In this document: positions 15,484 to 25,040 of the stretch, piece after piece
Layout: the number at the start of each line of letters is the position of its first letter
Position numbering within the stretch: position 1 is the stretch's first letter
Virus record (IMG/VR): IMGVR_UViG_3300049730_000183
Location: 1 to 26,024 of that record
Length of the DNA: 26,024 nucleotides
Source of the DNA: a virus
Lineage: Duplodnaviria; Caudoviricetes
Direction: 5' to 3' (one strand)
Notes under the pieces: model-generated
Seen by the model: the letters and a program-made list of their open reading frames with translations, nothing else
What the model was told of the DNA's origin: nothing
Databases searched by the model: none
Position numbers and translations under genes: made by a program

Positions 15484-16605
15484 TTATCGGGTTTGGCGCA
15501 GGCGTTGGAGGCGTAGCAGTGCGTGCCGGTTCTCGTTGAGGAACTGATCCTTCGCTTTGCCCTCAGGCATCGCGTTGTATTGATCCAGGATATCGTCGCT
15601 GGTGGCGCCACCCTCGGCCTCGGCTTTGAGATTCAGCGGCTCACCAGAATTGGACGGCGGTGCTGTGCGCGCGGCTTTCCCCTGAGGTGGCGTGACCGCG
15701 ATGCTGCCCAGCATCTTCTGCGCTTCCTCCTGGTCCTTGAGGAACAAACTCGTCCAGAGCGCAATCGACTGCTCATCGTTCTTGATGCGACCGGCAGCGA
15801 TGGCATCTGAAACGGCGCGATTGGCGACCTGTTGGCGCAATTGCTGGTTGGATTCGTTTGCGGTCTTGAGATCGCCCTTAAGCGTTTCGAGAACCCTGCG
15901 GTGCGCCGTCACAGAGGCATCGATTTGATCGAGCATGTCCTTTTCGGGCGCGTCGACAGCGGTGATAAGCTTTAAAGCGACTAGCTTTTCGAGCACGGCA
16001 TTCATGACTGGTGTCTTGGTTTTGATTATGGGTGGATGTTTGAACTTCGAGAGGTCGACCGAGGCAGTTATGGTGATCGCCTCGGTCACTTCATCAGCGA
16101 AACCAAAGTCCTCGGCTTCTTCAGCCGTGAACCAGCGCTCATCGCGCATCGAATCTTCGATTTCCTTTCGTGGTTTCCCGCATTTCGCCTCGTAAATTGG
16201 CACGATGAGATCGCGGAATTTGTCGAGGACTTCGGCCTGCTTGCGCATATCATCTGCATCACCCAAGACGAATCCCTGAGGATTGTGGATCATGAGCATC
16301 GTGTTCTCGGGCATCACGAGACGCCGACCGGCCATTGCGATGAAACTGGCGGCGCTTGCTGCCCAACCATCAACGCGCGCCGTCAGGTGTTCACGCCGCT
16401 CCGCAAGCTTCGTATAGATGGCCAAGGCATGCGTGACGTCTCCACCTTGAGAATTGATGGCCAAATCGATCTCCTGTCCCTTCGGGATCTGTTTAAGTGC
16501 GCTGATGAAGTCCTTGTCGGTCACGCCGAAGCCACCAATCTCGCCGTAGATGCTGATCTCTGCGACGTCAGCCTGATTCCGAATGGTGAACCACGTCTTA
16601 TTCAT
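15484..16605 (-). CDS. ClpP-type (S14) prohead protease fused to C-terminal scaffold-like region (373 aa)
   Basis: ATG at 16605 (MNKTWFTIRNQ). Motifs IYGEIG, INSQGGDV, GWAASAAS (catalytic Ser), LMIHNP (His) and ERWFTAEEA..FGFAD; coiled-coil C-terminal half. Confidence 0.93.
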   Translation of the reverse strand: MNKTWFTIRNQADVAEISIYGEIGGFGVTDKDFISALKQIPKGQEIDLAINSQGGDVTHALAIYTKLAERREHLTARVDGWAASAASFIAMAGRRLVMPENTMLMIHNPQGFVLGDADDMRKQAEVLDKFRDLIVPIYEAKCGKPRKEIEDSMRDERWFTAEEAEDFGFADEVTEAITITASVDLSKFKHPPIIKTKTPVMNAVLEKLVALKLITAVDAPEKDMLDQIDASVTAHRRVLETLKGDLKTANESNQQLRQQVANRAVSDAIAAGRIKNDEQSIALWTSLFLKDQEEAQKMLGSIAVTPPQGKAARTAPPSNSGEPLNLKAEAEGGATSDDILDQYNAMPEGKAKDQFLNENRHALLRLQRLRQTR

Positions 16606-18133
16606 CGCTGGCGAGGACTGGTTCTCGGGTTTCTTCTTCATCCTCTTGCTCTTCTTCTTGCTTCGAGGATGATCGGATGGATGAATTCGGCGGCATCGAT
16701 GGGAGAGAATTCGGGTTTCCGAAACCAATATATTGAGGCGGGATTCCTCGCTCTTCAGCCCCTTTGAGTATATCAGCAACTTCGTCCAGGAATTGGTTTG
16801 TTTCCCTCTTTGCGACGAGTTGAAATCGCCCGAAATATTCGCGTCGGGTCATCAGGCCCATCTTCACATCTTCCCGGTCCTGGGCAGCCTCGCGCCCAGC
16901 GTCGACTGTGAGATCTTTCGGCATTTGCCAAGAGACTTGGCGCCAATCCACGGGCGGATCGGTGAGATCTCCCGATTCAATCGCGGCCTGAATGACAAAT
17001 TCATAATGACGCTGGAATTGAGAGGCGAAGTCCTGCTGCCAATTACCGGTGACACGTTGAGCCATGGCCAGATCACGCCGCGTATCGGCCCCACCAACCT
17101 TCATCTGGAGCAGAACAGAGGGAGGCAGGTTGGTTGAGAGGCAAATGGTGTTGGCCAGGAAATCCATGAATCCCTCCCATGTGGGCGAAGGTCGTTTGGG
17201 TTCCCAGGGCACAACATCATCGCCGTGCGCCAGAACGATCGTTTCAGGACCAGCGATCTTCTTGTAATATTCGATCTTCTGGTCAGTCGTTGCGGTGGCC
17301 GGCGCGGCACCATCGTAGATGGCCTGCGACACATCGAGTTCCCCAGCCGCATTCTTGATGACATCTTTGCGCGCACTGAGGGATTTCACCGCCGATTTCT
17401 CGAGTGCGAGGATATCCTGGATGTCATGCGCGGTGTTGATCGCAGTGGCCAGGACGCTTGCGCCACGGTACTGGCGCGCTCGCTCGTAATTGAGATGTTG
17501 GATGAGCAGTCTCGCGGGAATCTTTTGGAATGCGGATTTGTCCTCGGACGATTCCCACACCGTGAACGAGATCGGGCGCCCGATCCGATCGAGGTTCACG
17601 CCATCGGGCGTGCGGTTCTTCGTGCTCTCGGGTGAACGCACCAGATGTGATTCGACGAGCTGAATTGCAGGCCGACCTGTCTCTGGAACCGCCGTCTGGT
17701 AGCTGAAGATGTCGCCATCGAGGAAAACGGAGCGCGCGACGACCCGCTGCATCTGCCACCAATTCATCGCCGTCTGAAGATCGGGCGATTTCGCCCAATC
17801 CAGGAACGCAGTGAATGCAGCAGTGTTCCATTCCTCGCTGGCTGAAGCAGGAACAGGGATGAGTCCAGGGCCGATCGTGAGCGTGACGAGGCGCTCGATC
17901 AGCGCGCGTGTGACCGGCGAGTTGCGATAAAGATGGCGCGCCCTTCGCAGCAGTTCCCGACGCGTGCATTCGTCGAGATCAAACCGCGCTTCGGTGATGC
18001 TCGCCCATAGCGTTGAGCGAGTGGGGTTCGGGAGCGCGCCATCGTAAGCGCCCGTGGAATAGTTCCTGAAGCGCAGCCGCGCAGGCGAACCTCCTGGATC
18101 GAGAATGGCTTTTACGCCGTTACGCGCATGCAT
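16598..18133 (-). CDS. Portal protein, lambda family
   Basis: RRARHLYRNSP, DGDIF, QYRGASVL and WQMP..LTVDAGREA motifs; 511 aa; located before the protease. Confidence 0.92.
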   Translation of the reverse strand: MHARNGVKAILDPGGSPARLRFRNYSTGAYDGALPNPTRSTLWASITEARFDLDECTRRELLRRARHLYRNSPVTRALIERLVTLTIGPGLIPVPASASEEWNTAAFTAFLDWAKSPDLQTAMNWWQMQRVVARSVFLDGDIFSYQTAVPETGRPAIQLVESHLVRSPESTKNRTPDGVNLDRIGRPISFTVWESSEDKSAFQKIPARLLIQHLNYERARQYRGASVLATAINTAHDIQDILALEKSAVKSLSARKDVIKNAAGELDVSQAIYDGAAPATATTDQKIEYYKKIAGPETIVLAHGDDVVPWEPKRPSPTWEGFMDFLANTICLSTNLPPSVLLQMKVGGADTRRDLAMAQRVTGNWQQDFASQFQRHYEFVIQAAIESGDLTDPPVDWRQVSWQMPKDLTVDAGREAAQDREDVKMGLMTRREYFGRFQLVAKRETNQFLDEVADILKGAEERGIPPQYIGFGNPNSLPSMPPNSSIRSSSKQEEEQEDEEETREPVLASDE

Positions 18134-18833: not shown

Positions 18834-19142
18834 TCAAGAACGATCACCTCCATAAATCAATTTCTCACCCGTCTCCTTTTCATATTCCGCGCGAAACTTT
18901 TCAACCCTGACGCGGTGTTCCTCATCAGTGAGATCGCGACGAAAGATGATTTTGGCACCCAGCGGGTCGATCTCGCGAAACGTAAACTCATCCAGTTCGA
19001 CGGGCATCTCGACTGACCATGTGCTGTCGGGTCGCCACCGCAATGTTACTGTGACGTCCTGCGGTCTCTCCGGCCGGTGCCGGTGAGAAAACTGCATAAG
19101 ATCGGAGGGTTGAATATAAATGGTGATTTTGATCGGCATCAT
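18834..19142 (-). CDS. Hypothetical protein (102 aa)
   Basis: ATG at 19142 (MMPIKITIY), 1 nt after the upstream TAA. Confidence 0.65.
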   Translation of the reverse strand: MMPIKITIYIQPSDLMQFSHRHRPERPQDVTVTLRWRPDSTWSVEMPVELDEFTFREIDPLGAKIIFRRDLTDEEHRVRVEKFRAEYEKETGEKLIYGGDRS

Positions 19143-19143
19143 T

Positions 19144-19401
19144 TTATTGAGTCTCCCGTTTAAAGTTGGGTTGGCCGCGCCGAAGCATGTCGCGCAAAAT
19201 GCGATCGAACGCCAAGCGGCGGAGATCCGGGTCACCGATAGCAGCAGTGGCCTCCTCGGCGTTCTTCACAAAGGCCGGATAAGCGCGCAGGCGCGGCAGA
19301 TTTGGGGTCGGAATGACGATTATGAGCACCAGGATTGTCGCCAGGAACAATCCGGCGCCCGCTGGAAGAAGCGCGCTGAATAGGTCAAATGGACGTTTCA
19401 T
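19144..19401 (-). CDS. Small single-pass membrane protein (85 aa)
   Basis: ATG 3 nt after the MTase stop; hydrophobic segment AGAGLFLATILVLIIVI. Confidence 0.6.
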   Translation of the reverse strand: MKRPFDLFSALLPAGAGLFLATILVLIIVIPTPNLPRLRAYPAFVKNAEEATAAIGDPDLRRLAFDRILRDMLRRGQPNFKRETQ

Positions 19402-19404
19402 GGG

Positions 19405-20415
19405 TTATTTTGATGAATTCGCGGAATTCCTTGTTTTAGGGAGTTTGATCTCGACGCCGATATAATGGCGTCCGAGGGCATTGGCTGCATACCCGGTGGT
19501 GCCGGAACCGTGAAATGGATCGAGGATCGTATCGCCGGCATGACTCGTGGCCTTAACGATTTTCTCGAAGCCCAAAACGGATTGCTGCCATGGATGCTGA
19601 TCCTGGGCTTGATCGCCGTTTTCGATTACGAGCGTGTCATTCAGCGATTCATGCAATCGCGCAAGAGGGGGCTTCTGATAGAGAAGGACCAGCTTCGACG
19701 ATTGATGAACTCCGAGATGATGAAGGAAACGCGTCGCACCGCCGCGCATGTACCAAATCAAGGCGCCACGCCAGCATAACGCGGAATCGGGCATCAGTTT
19801 CAAGAGGCGCGGCAGATAGAAAGTTCCGGCGAGGACAGCCAGCCAGGCTCCCGGTTTCAGAACCCGGACGGCGAGCGCATAAAGCTGTTCATGGAGGTCA
19901 AGATTTTTCGACTGATATGGCGGATCGGTGATTAGAGCGGCGATCGATTCAGATGGAACATCGGATTCATCGAGATCGCGCATGTCCATATGCAGGATGC
20001 GGGAATCGACGTGATTATTAGCGACTGCTTCCTTTGCGCGGGCTTCAACCTTGGCACGAGCGGCATTCTCGCGCTTCAGCCGACGCAAATCATGGCGAAT
20101 TTGCGTTGGATGAAGCTGCTTTAGTTCTGGAACTAAAGGAGAAACATCGGACCATGATTCTGCAAGCCATTTGGCATTGGATCGATCTACAGTGTGCAGA
20201 CGTTTCCCATTCAGAACGTCAAGCTCATTCTCGATAATCCATTGGCCGAAGAGCTTATCTGACAGGAATTGATTTCTACCTTCAGCAAGCAACTCTCCAT
20301 ATCGACGCCAGTTTTCCAAGGCATCGCTCATCCCGGATTCAATCCGATGGAGCGCCGCCCTCATCTCGACGGCGATTTCGCTAAGAGGCCGTTCAACGAT
20401 TACGAGAGACGACAT
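19405..20415 (-). CDS. Amino-DNA methyltransferase (N6/N4, beta-class order) with N-terminal helical domain
   Basis: Motif IV ITDPPY, RVLKPGA, motif I ILDPFHGSGTTG, and HYIGVEI. The N-terminal YGELLAEGR...FGQWI resembles DUF3102-like phage domains. Confidence 0.9.
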   Translation of the reverse strand: MSSLVIVERPLSEIAVEMRAALHRIESGMSDALENWRRYGELLAEGRNQFLSDKLFGQWIIENELDVLNGKRLHTVDRSNAKWLAESWSDVSPLVPELKQLHPTQIRHDLRRLKRENAARAKVEARAKEAVANNHVDSRILHMDMRDLDESDVPSESIAALITDPPYQSKNLDLHEQLYALAVRVLKPGAWLAVLAGTFYLPRLLKLMPDSALCWRGALIWYMRGGATRFLHHLGVHQSSKLVLLYQKPPLARLHESLNDTLVIENGDQAQDQHPWQQSVLGFEKIVKATSHAGDTILDPFHGSGTTGYAANALGRHYIGVEIKLPKTRNSANSSK

Positions 20416-21935
20416 GGCGAGAGGAGCATGCGAGAACGCATCAGAGACGGTACACCAAACAGGTCCAGCAGCATTTCGCCAGGACGGAGCGTCTGCGCTT
20501 CGTTCTCGACATCGAATCGGACAGTCGGCAGCGCTTCCTTCAAGACCTTCGGGTGCTTGTGTCGCCCAGCCATGAAGGAATTGAGGTTATGACGAATTTC
20601 CTGCGGAATATCGCCCGCATTCTGCACCGACACGACGAACGCAATTCCACGGGAGCGCCCCTTACGGATATGCTCATTCAAACTCGATACCGCACGTGAG
20701 CGAAAATCTCTGTTGGGATGGCAGAAGATGTCGGCAGCCTCATCAACGAGATTCAACAATTTGGGAGAGCACGCCGCCCTTAATCTCAGTTCGGCCTGGC
20801 GTCGCAGGAAGTTGTCCAGGAAGAGGGCATAGGACCTGGGATCAGCGTCGGCAATCCGTATCACGACGTTGCCTCCGGCCCTCAGGTCATCAAGCGGGTC
20901 GCGCGTGATTGCGGCGGGCCTAGCGCCCGCCAGAGGCCCTCGCCTACGAGTGGCAGGATTCCTGATCCAATCGAAGATACGGCCCGGCATGTGCAGTTTC
21001 CGATGGACCGCTTCCCATGTCCGAGGATTGATATTTACCCTGATAGTCAGTCTCGCCTCCATAGCTGGCGCTTCCGGCAGAATCCAGTCCATGAAGTCCT
21101 CGATGTGCCAGTTCGGGTCTGGTCTGCTGTTCGCAAAATCGAGAAGAACAAACTCAGCAATCTCAGCCTGCCTTTCTTCGCCGTTGCGATGGAAGATTGC
21201 CCACGCGAGGAGGCTTGGGTCCAACTGCCCGGCCGGAATGTAAATTGGTGATCCACGCCCTCCCTCGCCCAGACTATAGAAACTCACATGGGCAAGACCG
21301 GAAGGATCAGCTACAGCCAGTGACGAGGCCTCATCAACAGATTGATAATCCGGCTTGAGATCATAAATGATGTTGGCTCTTCCGAGATCGTTCGAGACTT
21401 TGAGCAGGCGGCCACAGCTTTGCGTCTTCCCTGAACCGGTTGAACCGGCGACCCCGATATGATGATCGAGTTGCCAATCATCCAGAGTTACCGGTATCGG
21501 CGTCCCTGGATTATCAAGGACTCCAATGGGATGCGTGCCCCTCATGTCGAGGGCATCGTGGACAGTGTGAGCATCTGCAACTCTGGCACGCGAGCCAGCC
21601 AATGGTCGCGTAAGGGCCGATTGCAACCCGTTCTCACCGATTACGCCAAGCACCTGAGCCCGATAGCATCCAAGCTGCGAAAGGTGTGAATCCAGGGCAT
21701 AATCGCCATCGAGTGTTTTAATCATACACTGAAGCGATTGCGCATCCGTAGGGGCTTCTGCGCTTGGATTGATATTCAATTGGGGGCTCAAGGTTTGAGC
21801 GAAGTACCGCTTGGAGTTATCTTGAATCACGAGATAACTCAGCGACGGAATCTCCTGGCATCTGGCAAGCAATCGAACATCAGTAGAGTTGCTCTTTGCG
21901 TCATCAGCCAGTTGGATCAATTCTGTATTATTCAT
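20400..21935 (-). CDS. herA: HerA/FtsK-superfamily ATPase (DUF87) with N-terminal HAS-barrel-like region
   Basis: HHIGVAGSTGSGKT (Walker A), IIYDLKPDY, LVDEA (Walker B), RKGRSRGI (Arg finger), SVQ sensor and LRPGE; ATGA-coupled to the NurA-like gene. Confidence 0.92.
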   Translation of the reverse strand: MNNTELIQLADDAKSNSTDVRLLARCQEIPSLSYLVIQDNSKRYFAQTLSPQLNINPSAEAPTDAQSLQCMIKTLDGDYALDSHLSQLGCYRAQVLGVIGENGLQSALTRPLAGSRARVADAHTVHDALDMRGTHPIGVLDNPGTPIPVTLDDWQLDHHIGVAGSTGSGKTQSCGRLLKVSNDLGRANIIYDLKPDYQSVDEASSLAVADPSGLAHVSFYSLGEGGRGSPIYIPAGQLDPSLLAWAIFHRNGEERQAEIAEFVLLDFANSRPDPNWHIEDFMDWILPEAPAMEARLTIRVNINPRTWEAVHRKLHMPGRIFDWIRNPATRRRGPLAGARPAAITRDPLDDLRAGGNVVIRIADADPRSYALFLDNFLRRQAELRLRAACSPKLLNLVDEAADIFCHPNRDFRSRAVSSLNEHIRKGRSRGIAFVVSVQNAGDIPQEIRHNLNSFMAGRHKHPKVLKEALPTVRFDVENEAQTLRPGEMLLDLFGVPSLMRSRMLLSPCRLS

Positions 21936-23020
21936 CGGCAGTCCCTTTCATCGCGCGTAGCGCAGTAGATGTCGGTTTCGTTCTGGAAAATTGCCGCACG
22001 TATCGGCTCGGTGATCTGGTGGGGAAAACTCATTCCGCGCACTTTGCTGTCCGCCAATTGTGCTAAAGCTGGAATCTCATGGTCCTGGATCATTGAGGGA
22101 TCGTGCAGGAGGATCGCCAACGCCGTAGGGATATAATCTTCACCACATTCAATAACGTGATGACGGGCTTTTAACCGATACACGACGCGGACCCACGAAT
22201 CGCTTGCATTGATCCAATTTATGGCACCACCGCCGCTTTTACTCCCTTGGAAACGCTCCGCCATCAGGCCTCGCCAATCCCTGCATACCCAAAACTCGCC
22301 AGGGATTAAGGAGAGACCGACCATATCGAGAATGGAACTTGTACGGTCGTTTTTGATGAACCCGATGAGTTGATGGAGTCGATCCATCATCGCATCGAGC
22401 ATTTTCGCCGCAGGGTATTGACCGGAATCCGGATCCTTGTTCCCAGCCTGGGTCAGAAGATTTTGCGTGAATAACGGACCATCGATGAGGACAATGTCTG
22501 CCCGTTGCGCGTCGATCAGCTCGAGTGCCTTCTGGCGTTCAAGGTATTCCCGGAAGGTCCGTGTCCAACTGTCCTCGGTTTGCCGTACCGCATCGAGGTG
22601 CTTCGCGAGATCGAGAAGGTTGTCACGATCAATCCATAGCCGATCTGTAATATCGTGACTTAAAGTCTGGGTTTGATGGGTTTCTACGGGTTCCTGTTGC
22701 CGCGCACATACTGCGGCAATCGTGCACGCATAGACTGATGACGCGGCAAGATGCACCTCATAGGCTTTAGAGCCATCAACAGCCCAGACGCGTCCCGCAC
22801 GATAGAGCTCTGCAACATGTTCGCGGAACGGGGCTGCAGTAACCTCGATTCTCGCGATGGGATATTCTGCTTCGGCCAAACGCCGTATCTCCGCCAACAG
22901 TTCGGTCCGAACCCTTTGGTTCTCCGGGATCGTGGCCGCGATTAATCCTGGTGCCGGATAGATCTCGGTGATGTCTCTGGCATGACTTAATGACTCAATG
23001 AATGGAGATTTGGTTCTCAT
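21932..23020 (-). CDS. nurA: NurA-family nuclease (RNase H-like fold)
   Basis: VWAVDGS, REYLE, IVLIDGPL, IGFIK and C-terminal IPALAQLAD motifs in NurA order; directly upstream of herA. Confidence 0.85.
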   Translation of the reverse strand: MRTKSPFIESLSHARDITEIYPAPGLIAATIPENQRVRTELLAEIRRLAEAEYPIARIEVTAAPFREHVAELYRAGRVWAVDGSKAYEVHLAASSVYACTIAAVCARQQEPVETHQTQTLSHDITDRLWIDRDNLLDLAKHLDAVRQTEDSWTRTFREYLERQKALELIDAQRADIVLIDGPLFTQNLLTQAGNKDPDSGQYPAAKMLDAMMDRLHQLIGFIKNDRTSSILDMVGLSLIPGEFWVCRDWRGLMAERFQGSKSGGGAINWINASDSWVRVVYRLKARHHVIECGEDYIPTALAILLHDPSMIQDHEIPALAQLADSKVRGMSFPHQITEPIRAAIFQNETDIYCATRDERDCR

Positions 23021-23111
23021 ACTGTAGGCGACGAAAGAAGGGACCTACAGTGAGATGAATGAGAGCTATTCTAGAAGTATTCATCGGTGCTGGACCCTTC
23101 ACAGGTCGTGG
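23021..23111 (-). promoter_or_regulatory. Structured 5' leader of the nurA-herA-MTase operon
   Basis: Inverted repeats at 23021-23028/23044-23051 (8 bp), 23054-23060/23079-23085 (7 bp) and 23093-23096/23104-23107, plus alternative pairing 23037-23045/23092-23100. Confidence 0.5.
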
Positions 23112-23117
23112 GACGGG

Positions 23118-23160
23118 CTAATAGTCGACGCTGCCTTCATTGTCAAGGAACTTTTTCTTA
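23118..23160 (-). promoter_or_regulatory. Sigma70-like promoter for the accessory operon
   Basis: Perfect TTGACA (23146-23141), 17-nt spacer, TATTAG (23123-23118, 4/6 match), with an upstream A-tract TAAGAAAAAG. Confidence 0.6.
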
Positions 23161-23198
23161 AATGGTTGCAGGGCGCAGAGCCGGCGCAATCACTTCGC

Positions 23199-25040
23199 TC
23201 ATTCCGTCTGCCCGCGCTTCCACGCCAGGCGCCGGTGCGCCATCGCCCAGGGCAGCTGCATGATCTCGCAGTCCAGGATGTGGTCGGGCCATTTGCTGGA
23301 GCGCAAAACCCAGCGATGTTCGACGCGACCGGTGCGCGGCGATGAGAACGGCTTGAGCACTTTGGCGTCCATCTGCCGCCGATATTCATCCTCAGAAACC
23401 AGAACCGCCCCTGGGGTTTTTGTTCCGATCGGGAATTCCTGGAGTTCCCACCGTTCACCGGTCATCCGACGCCGCAGCCGCCAGAGAATATCGAGGAAGT
23501 AATCGGAGGCGAACTCGAGGAGCGGCAGGTGGATGCGTCGGTTCGGCGGGACGGCAGCGCTGCCATAGAAGAAGGGTGAATGCTGGCCCGTACGTCTGTC
23601 GATCCATTGCATCGCCCGATCGCGGCCCTTGCCTGGAATCCAGCCGATGGAGGTGGGAAGTCCAACATTTCGGTTCGTCGGCTTCCCCCAGCGGAGGCAG
23701 TGTTCGTAAACGTCGGCGGTGCGGTGTCCGGAATCGATGAGAACGTGGTGATCCAAAACACCGTGGACTTCCTGGAGGCGCCTAATTGTTTCCCAATCGT
23801 CGGCGTGTGCTGCAGCGATAAGGCGCGAATCCCCCATTTTGCTCCATGACCGGATGACGATCCAGAAGTATGGACTCACGGCCTGGACATCGACCGTCAT
23901 CAACGGAACGGATTCTGGAAGCGCCGGCGCGTCGGGTGGTGAGATGAGTTCCACGCGTTCCTGTCTGCTTTCCTGGTTTTCCCAGGGTTCAGCAAGGTAA
24001 CCGTTGATCCAGGATTGCAGGCCCAGGAGGGAATCTTTGTCCTGGAGGAACCGCACGCAAAGGGAACCCCAGAAACATTTGCGGTCGGGAGAATAAAGGC
24101 TGGAGAGCTGGTAACTGCGTTCGCCCTGGAGCGCGCCTTGATTGGTGGCGCGCCATTCGCCTCTGCGCATCATCAACAATTTCTGCGAATCGTTGATCGC
24201 CGTCTTGCAGTGCTGACATTCATAGCGCGCGCTTGCGCGCACGCGTGCCATGTCCCAGGTGCCGTCAGAAAGCTTCGCGCCCTGGTCCCACTTCACGTTC
24301 GCCCAATCAAGCGTGATGAATGTTCTGCAGTGAATGCAGGGCAGAAAGAAGCGGCGCCGGTCGCCACGCAGGTAGCGCTGCCAGATTTCGCCTTCAACTA
24401 TCGTGGGCGATGAGGATCGGAATATCTTCGACGAAGAATAGGCCTTGGTTCGTTGTTCCGCCAGATCCAGGGCCGCAGCCTCGCGCTCGGTCGCGCGCGC
24501 GAACTTGTCGATCTCATCGGCCACGAGGATGCGAACCGGTCTGCTGGAGAGTTGCGCGGGACTGTTCGAACCCGAGAAATTGATCGTCGCGCGAAGGAAA
24601 TGCTGCTCGAGGTTGGTAAACTTCTGACTGCGATCCGGCAGTTCCGCCCGCAACGCTGCGGAATCCTGAACAAAAGGTTGCCACCGGGTTTTAGAGAAAC
24701 TGCGCGCCAGATCCGTGTTCGGCAGAATCCAGAGGCAAGGCGAAGGCGCATTGACCAGGGACCAACCGACACCAGCCATAAAAAGTGTCGTTTTCCCGGT
24801 CTGCGTCCCGAAGCAGAGTGTGACCTCATCGACGCCCGGTTGTTTGAACCCTTCCAGGGGTTCGCGCATGTAAGGACGTTGTCCAACGGAAAATGGTCCA
24901 GCCTGTTCGCTTTGCCGTTCGCCCAACCACAGATTGCCCTCGCACCAATCGGTGACCGTTTCATCCGGGAGCGGGGCGTAAAGAGACCGGCGAAATTCGA
25001 GGACGGCTTCCTGCTCTGCGGTCAGGAGCTCAGTCACCAT
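23199..25040 (-). CDS. terL: Terminase large subunit, lambda GpA family
   Basis: PYMREP, GTQTGKT (Walker A), LVADEID (Walker B), SSPT, two CxxC pairs (PCIHC, YECQHC), and nuclease motifs TVDVQ, IDSGH and DHILDC. Confidence 0.96.
   Translation of the reverse strand: MVTELLTAEQEAVLEFRRSLYAPLPDETVTDWCEGNLWLGERQSEQAGPFSVGQRPYMREPLEGFKQPGVDEVTLCFGTQTGKTTLFMAGVGWSLVNAPSPCLWILPNTDLARSFSKTRWQPFVQDSAALRAELPDRSQKFTNLEQHFLRATINFSGSNSPAQLSSRPVRILVADEIDKFARATEREAAALDLAEQRTKAYSSSKIFRSSSPTIVEGEIWQRYLRGDRRRFFLPCIHCRTFITLDWANVKWDQGAKLSDGTWDMARVRASARYECQHCKTAINDSQKLLMMRRGEWRATNQGALQGERSYQLSSLYSPDRKCFWGSLCVRFLQDKDSLLGLQSWINGYLAEPWENQESRQERVELISPPDAPALPESVPLMTVDVQAVSPYFWIVIRSWSKMGDSRLIAAAHADDWETIRRLQEVHGVLDHHVLIDSGHRTADVYEHCLRWGKPTNRNVGLPTSIGWIPGKGRDRAMQWIDRRTGQHSPFFYGSAAVPPNRRIHLPLLEFASDYFLDILWRLRRRMTGERWELQEFPIGTKTPGAVLVSEDEYRRQMDAKVLKPFSSPRTGRVEHRWVLRSSKWPDHILDCEIMQLPWAMAHRRLAWKRGQTE

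Follow-up and report, generated by a model that had tools for sequence, protein, structure and literature searches.

The virus record IMGVR_UViG_3300049730_000183 (Duplodnaviria; Caudoviricetes), analysed over its entire 26,024 bases and called the window below, carries on its minus strand three adjoining genes for a NurA-family nuclease, a HerA-type ring ATPase and a methyltransferase (MTase). On balance, we favour the view that this nurA-herA-MTase trio is a mobile cassette which would act as a stand-alone, methylation-guarded, restriction-like degrader of foreign DNA ends, a view drawn from sequence comparison and from analogy with known systems. The cassette comprises the following features (aa, amino acids; nt, nucleotides; SAM, S-adenosylmethionine).

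23118–23146, minus strand: candidate promoter of the sigma70 type, TTGACA-17-TATTAG, within the 178 bp that follow the terminase gene terL (10/12 bases of the consensus; 97 nt ahead of the nurA ATG)
21932–23020, minus strand: NurA-family nuclease, 362 aa, with D82, E158, D180 and H314 (Pfam PF09376, 31.7 bits; structure model; conservation)
20400–21935, minus strand: HerA-type ring ATPase/translocase, 511 aa (Pfam DUF87, 33.8 bits; motifs)
19405–20415, minus strand: beta-class N6/N4 amino-MTase, 336 aa, with an N-terminal extension of about 135 aa of no named family (Pfam PF01555, N6_N4_Mtase, 67.3 bits)

Gene products and layout

The overlaps described in the first-pass annotation were borne out by the coordinates of the open reading frames (ORFs): nurA and herA share an ATGA junction, a 4-nt overlap, and herA overlaps the MTase gene by 16 nt. 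The catalytic motifs, which it had called intact-looking, proved conserved among homologues, and all three proteins scored above their Pfam cut-offs (21 bits for NurA).

Judging from its predicted structure (pLDDT, the predicted local distance difference test, 90.8), the first gene product has the RNase H-like NurA fold. The model aligned best with the S. solfataricus NurA 2ygk_A (Z 16.7, root-mean-square deviation (rmsd) 4.2, 274 aligned), followed by the P. furiosus-type and T. kodakarensis NurA (Z 16.4–13.0) and the Deinococcus NurA (Z 12.7). The TdpAB chain 8wfd_G, which has only the fold in common with it, gave Z 14.6 (rmsd 6.3, 286 aligned), and unrelated RNase H folds remained below Z 11. 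Sequence searches of the PDB with NurA returned no real match, and only the fold search placed the protein. Residues D82, E158 and D180 were invariant and H314 nearly invariant across 45 aligned sequences (the window protein, P0002 and 43 matches of nearly full length); we take these four residues to be the known catalytic set.

The second gene product belongs, by its sequence, to the HerA/FtsK type, with Walker A and B motifs, an arginine finger and a sensor glutamine. The Walker A residues G164-K170 (G164/G169/K170), the Walker B pair D398/E399, R424-x-G-R427 and Q438 were invariant in 23 sequences, and the top PDB profile match was the archaeal HerA 4d2i (E 1e-20). In a cyanobacterial subgroup (L018, L020, L021, L022 and L049–L052), an ORF of 178–200 aa followed by an ATPase of about 390 aa lies between nurA and the MTase gene, apparently a conserved two-piece HerA. 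In a Stenomitos assembly (L016:7950-10466), NurA and HerA occupy a single 838-aa frame, either a natural fusion or an assembly error.

In the MTase, the DPPY motif at positions 164–167 precedes the SAM motif DPF-G-GTT (DPFHGSGTT) at 299–307, both being invariant in 6 sequences; this is the order that we assume to define the beta class. The PDB profile matches were DpnA, CcrM, RsrI and MboIIA. A DUF3102 label considered for the N-terminus received no support from Pfam and was dropped. Where the gene starts is not certain: a form of 319 aa is present in the protein collection, as would result from a start at Met18, and there would then be no overlap with herA.

The first-pass annotation had also given the cassette its own promoter. 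The TTGACA-17-TATTAG string does lie at 23146–23118, and an own promoter is plausible, the motif being no independent evidence for it. The consensus scan does not list the site because the final T of the -10 box is missing, and its total was near the shuffle level (4 sites in the window versus 3.2 ± 1.9 in shuffles). A hairpin covering the nurA start codon (23012–23066) had a z of −4.7 in a 55-nt stretch picked after viewing and could damp translation of the nuclease; over 105 nt the z was −1.7 with a different fold, and the hairpin was not common to the relatives. One RNA run gave scattered short contigs across the cassette and the structural genes alike and was uninformative on expression.

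Linkage, methyltransferase exchange and genomic settings

A two-sequence NurA profile retrieved 81 relatives among 1.84 billion representatives, and 55 loci were gathered (1 viral, 21 from genomes and 33 from metagenomes). The herA gene came next after nurA in 51/51 loci with enough sequence, four others ending too early, and a −4 overlap followed nurA in 38 of these 51. An MTase gene lay directly after herA in 37/41 loci, once the 14 loci ending within 1.3 kb of herA or earlier had been set aside. The four loci lacking it were L002 and L041, in which herA is truncated (before an IS66 gene in L002), and L018/L048, which are one locus. Truncated or split herA genes were also present in L004 and L007. 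The loci formed 31 clusters at 90% identity and 12 at 50% besides the window; 11 of these 12 NurA clusters had an MTase-bearing member and the twelfth was interrupted by a contig end. A whole-genome profile search added six loci, with an MTase in the two strongest (L143 and L144) and in the distant L148, and none seen in the distant L145–L147. L144 keeps all three genes in the order herA-MTase-nurA. The conserved linkage anticipated from the window is thus, at the level of sequence, real. Membership extends beyond the NurA-pattern scan, since L149 was reached only via HerA. Single-sequence scans of IMG/VR with NurA and with HerA found nothing, nor did the 10-sequence NurA alignment there, and GenBank phages and plasmids gave no tblastn match to either NurA or HerA.

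Two types of MTase occupied the third slot. The beta type was present in 3 loci, and in 34 the SAM motif preceded D[PIVL]PY, a permuted order; no permuted MTase was matched by BLAST at 1e-3 with the window MTase as the query. The model of a permuted MTase (pLDDT 65, N-terminus unreliable) had a class I SAM-MTase fold with matches that included the tRNA enzymes Trm11, Trm14 and TrmN. Because these are generic class I matches, the assignment of the permuted enzymes to DNA depends on weak-to-moderate PF01555 matches and on the motif. Only 2 IMG/VR contigs had a confirmed permuted MTase; these are the 2 in which HerA is found, and both also have nurA. Since the slot holds two differently permuted MTases, a methylase appears to have been kept while the gene itself was swapped. 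In the HerA tree (18 rows), a single beta clade was rejected (p-AU, approximately unbiased test, 0.00017), and the trees require at least two changes of MTase type; judged from these trees, one replacement is certain and a second likely. The three cassette-linked beta MTases scored highest against the window MTase (125, 116 and 112 bits, others compared reaching at most 98). We discarded an initial view of the MTase as an incidental phage orphan on the 37/41 linkage, the co-occurrence in IMG/VR and the cassette linkage of its closest relatives.

The cassette was patchily distributed among phages and across no fewer than four bacterial phyla, with cyanobacteria, Chloroflexota, Latescibacterota and Thiomargarita among the named carriers. 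It was found in 8/79 Microcoleus genomes and in 6/301 genomes of a sample taken from the class to which the Dehalococcoidia locus belongs, with completeness not stated. Defence-type neighbours were Shedu (L005), an Mrr-type nuclease (L017), AAA_21 with HNH and Panacea (L019) and a Type I restriction-modification (R-M) operon (L018). Schlafen AlbA_2 neighbours were seen in 6 scanned loci, and TniB/transposase genes at L015; L003, L006, L013 and L016 had no defence-type or transposon neighbour among those scanned. In L017 (378-3088), the cassette has a TGT-like gene and an AAA_15 ATPase on its upstream side and the Mrr-type nuclease directly downstream, and these surroundings are likely a defence island.

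Several of these settings had features of their own. At L018 (11165-13087), the cassette adjoins a 640-aa ORF that has no Pfam match but to our eyes resembles Cas12k, and at L015 (4630-7185) it adjoins the TniB/transposase genes; cyanobacterial Tn7-like elements may thus carry the cassette as cargo. The viral cassette contig L001 (5173-15951) also holds genes of the PAPS-reductase (phosphoadenosine phosphosulfate reductase) type and a Cas6 gene nearby. L006, L012, L020, L021 and L022 seemingly share one Microcoleus chromosomal site, with similar flanking ORF sizes (in L006 the flanks are alpha-amylase, phosphoesterase, DUF4079 and ankyrin genes) and two cassette subfamilies, which suggests a hotspot where the subfamilies are swapped.

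The window itself is a fragment, with an estimated completeness of 24%, and its sequence is contained in soil metagenome runs. Its minus strand bears a lambda-type head module (gpA terminase, portal, Clp-type protease and major head protein), within which the trio is placed as follows.

23199–25040, minus strand: terminase large subunit, gpA-type, flank (Pfam GpA_ATPase, 204 bits)
18854–23198, no strand: inserted stretch or cargo slot of 4.3 kb, from terL to a 73-aa helix-turn-helix (HTH) gene (gap-length comparison; G+C at third codon positions, GC3)
19144–19401, minus strand: 85-aa ORF inside the insert, beginning 3 nt past the MTase stop (no family; no homologue in L001–L055)
16598–18133, minus strand: portal protein, lambda-family, flank (Pfam Phage_portal_2, 143 bits)

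The gap between terL and the portal gene measured 5,069 bp in the window, 510–536 bp in 75/76 related phage contigs and 2,223 bp in the closest relative, L056, where a homologue of the 73-aa HTH gene directly follows terL. This comparison used the best 80 of 151 matches, many of them near-copies, 76 of the 80 contigs containing both terL and the portal gene. The GC3 of nurA, herA and the MTase gene was 0.54–0.58, compared with 0.61–0.72 for the structural genes. The junction was confirmed by contig X9 (22972-23392), whose run carries no flag as a possible source; it extends without a difference from the end of terL across the candidate promoter to the start of nurA. The trio as inserted phage cargo in the head module is therefore supported. 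The edges of the insert showed no meaningful repeats and no target-site duplication, and an Rfam scan gave no match. The 85-aa ORF was not conserved together with the trio. L056 (2750-4050) carries a different insert of 1.4 kb in the same interval, including a 214-aa ORF without a Pfam match.

Over the whole window, GTAC (z −5.4), GGATCC (z −4.0) and CCGCGG (z −3.3) were under-represented, counting both strands, possibly through avoidance of host restriction sites. In the site counts, GATC was not depleted (z −0.6) and GTAC was (z −3.2), with no tie to the MTase possible. A clear Shine-Dalgarno motif preceded few of the 17 minus-strand gene starts, which hints at a host using the motif little.

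Proposed function and competing explanations

We propose that the cassette would be expressed from its own candidate promoter, that the methylase would mark the resident DNA and that the HerA ring would feed DNA ends lacking the mark into NurA, which would degrade them. Methylation would stall or release the motor or block its loading, sparing the DNA of the host and of the resident phage, and the gain would lie in keeping rival phages or other incoming DNA out. The linkage and the carriage as phage cargo are consistent with the self-marking and degradation scheme put forward in the first-pass annotation. Since HerA-NurA works from ends and NurA spares circular double-stranded DNA (dsDNA), according to the available text of PMC12977600, the natural substrate would be linear DNA, for example an injected phage genome. 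Sparing self is the simplest use of methylation because the methylase is kept beside HerA-NurA across phyla, gene swaps and reordering. A more specific form of the hypothesis is restriction without a site-specific endonuclease, in which HerA-NurA would destroy any end, the motor would read a methylation brake, and phages would spread the cargo with an interchangeable methylase in two permuted forms; we regard this form as possible but rather doubtful. The two natural MTase types permit a swap asking what the motor reads.

Several observations speak against a methylation-guarded degrader. No sequence-reading domain was evident in NurA or HerA, and swapped MTases should change the marked site unless the motif is identical or the action broad. 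At L018/L048, a full-length nurA and a two-piece herA lie behind the Type I R-M operon with no MTase of their own. The same trio serves DNA donation in the Thermus element ICEth1, where loss of the methylase has minor effects (available text of PMC5365140 and PMC7767461). The counts are inflated by cyanobacterial near-copies, the tally of defence neighbours had no background control, and monophyly of the beta type was not rejected on the NurA tree (p-AU 0.083; 0.052 once the window row was removed). Beta MTases are also common phage orphans, nurA or herA lying near 0 of the 80 best viral loci, with 11 of 64 parts scanned. Finally, about eight other loci had phage-like settings (L001, L149, L024, L025, L026/27, L037, L042 and L043), most of them next to genes for replication or recombination (NinB, RecT, Sak4-like, RusA, DnaB or an O-like initiator), a placement that also fits the phage's own DNA metabolism.

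This last observation, together with the frequency of orphan beta MTases, brings in an explanation by which NurA-HerA would serve the recombination or replication of the phage, preparing ends for RecT/Erf-type annealing or for rolling-circle initiation, with the MTase as an anti-restriction or regulatory passenger. End resection is indeed the textbook role of the NurA-HerA pair. We nevertheless consider this explanation unlikely. The window copy lies in the head module, at a place where 75/76 related phage contigs have no room for it, chromosomal copies lie among non-phage genes, and a passenger MTase would not be expected to persist in 37/41 loci through swap and reordering. The T. kodakarensis HerA-NurA, moreover, degrades both dsDNA strands from an end and leaves no 3' tails (available text of PMC12977600).

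The phage-like copies would equally suit a lytic weapon, in which NurA-HerA would break down, late in infection, the chromosome of the host or co-infecting DNA, and the MTase would shield the DNA of the phage progeny; the cassette points the same way as the head genes, and read-through from the late operon is possible. The many intact chromosomal copies beside non-phage genes in cyanobacteria, Chloroflexota and others, the promoter-like site of the cassette itself and the poor target that a circular chromosome offers to an end-dependent nuclease make this improbable. The tight coupling of the genes, their patchy spread, the frequent decay of herA (L002, L004, L007, L041) and the residence on mobile elements recall instead a selfish addiction module, with NurA-HerA killing the cells that lose the methylase and defence being incidental. 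We give this the least credit of the explanations weighed here, as the Thermus methylase mutant is viable in the available text of PMC5365140 and PMC7767461 and L018 has no MTase of its own.

Comparison with known systems

We compared the cassette, in our preferred reading a guarded degrader of foreign ends, with four characterised systems. The first-pass annotation took such a trio to be apparently undescribed in phages, and the novelty it implied is overstated. The gene order itself has a precedent in the tdtA operon of ICEth1 in Thermus thermophilus HB27, published in 2017: TTC1877 (Tth111II/TthHB27I), TTC1878 (NurA-like), TdtA and TTC1880 (N4/N6 methylase). The operon is co-transcribed and required for DNA donation (Blesa et al. 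2017, available text of PMC5365140). The window shares with it the order nurA, HerA/FtsK-type ATPase and PF01555 methylase, the tight or overlapping junctions (a −4 overlap), a G+C content below that of the surroundings and the residence on a mobile element. The likeness drawn here is one of gene order and description; a search of the HB27 plasmid pTT27, which covered the plasmid only, gave no cassette match.

It is conceivable that the cassette is likewise a TdtA-like donation or mobilisation module, chopping and pumping DNA for transfer. The Thermus operon is the only tested one with the same order and overlap (available text of PMC5365140), and both nurA and tdtA are needed for transjugation, the methylase being nearly dispensable (available text of PMC5365140 and PMC7767461). 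The Type IIG enzyme needed for transjugation is, however, absent from the window, which has terL in that position, and from 29/29 loci with at least 2.5 kb upstream. The long ORFs found upstream of cassette loci encode WD40, MgsA and HsdR proteins and one unscanned 669-aa product. A tailed phage, besides, already has a transfer route, and we hold a donation function to be quite unlikely. The cassette differs further in that it occupies phages and variable chromosomal sites, whereas ICEth1 is integrated at a tRNA gene, and in the exchange of two MTase types in its slot.

The archaeal and Deinococcus HerA-NurA pairs (2ygk, 3taz, 9x1m, 7f6d, 4d2i) have the same folds and the same catalytic residues. 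The cassette departs from them in being accessory, patchy and MTase-coupled, with 12–16% identity in structural alignments. Unlike the archaeal repair operon, it had no mre11 or rad50 in the scanned neighbours (not every neighbour was scanned), its flanks being terL and small ORFs, and the statement of the first-pass annotation that Mre11/Rad50 is missing from the window agrees with the lack of a match among the 29 proteins scanned of this fragmentary record. An antiviral role for HerA-NurA was suggested by the authors of the T. kodakarensis work without a test (available text of PMC12977600). Whether the pair is a repair machine or an antiviral shredder could most simply be tried on the three-gene version, which lacks both a restriction enzyme and Mre11/Rad50 and has a plain methylase.

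Sir2-HerA (Nezha) and DUF4297-HerA resemble the cassette in combining a HerA ring with an effector in mobile or defence settings, and their HerA models gave weak matches. The effector here is NurA, the HerA score was 19.8 against a cut-off of 850 bits, and those systems lack a methylase. No model in PADLOC (v2.0.0) matched all components of the cassette: 0/45 NurA-family members matched any model at E 0.01, and HerA gave weak partial matches only. A literature search found no description of a stand-alone or phage-borne nurA-herA-MTase, though subscription papers or supplements could hold one, and the trio is not described in the available text of PMC10853773, PMC12839542, PMC12948488, PMC3417536 and PMC7693054. 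The trio is thus not unprecedented in its order, and a phage-borne family that lacks the Type IIG enzyme and has an exchangeable methylase appears not to have been described.

The last system, TdpABC (An et al. 2025, PMID 39820821), also has three genes, a NurA-fold subunit (8wfd_G) and a single modifying enzyme. TdpA is reportedly HerA-like, and the mark is said to block degradation. TdpABC is a phosphorothioate R-M system in which the mark needs only tdpC (available text of PMC12914056 and PMC13223576). The modifier of the cassette is, in contrast, a SAM-dependent MTase in the window and in 37/41 loci, with no tdpC; by the Z-scores given above, its NurA resembles the Tdp chain no more closely than it does the archaeal NurA, and no Tdp chain was among the 9 PDB matches of the HerA profile, a sequence-profile search only. 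If methylation gates the cassette, it would be the methyl-based counterpart of TdpABC, a type of defence missed by PADLOC 2.0, and the role of the methylase in the Thermus tdtA operon would be recast.

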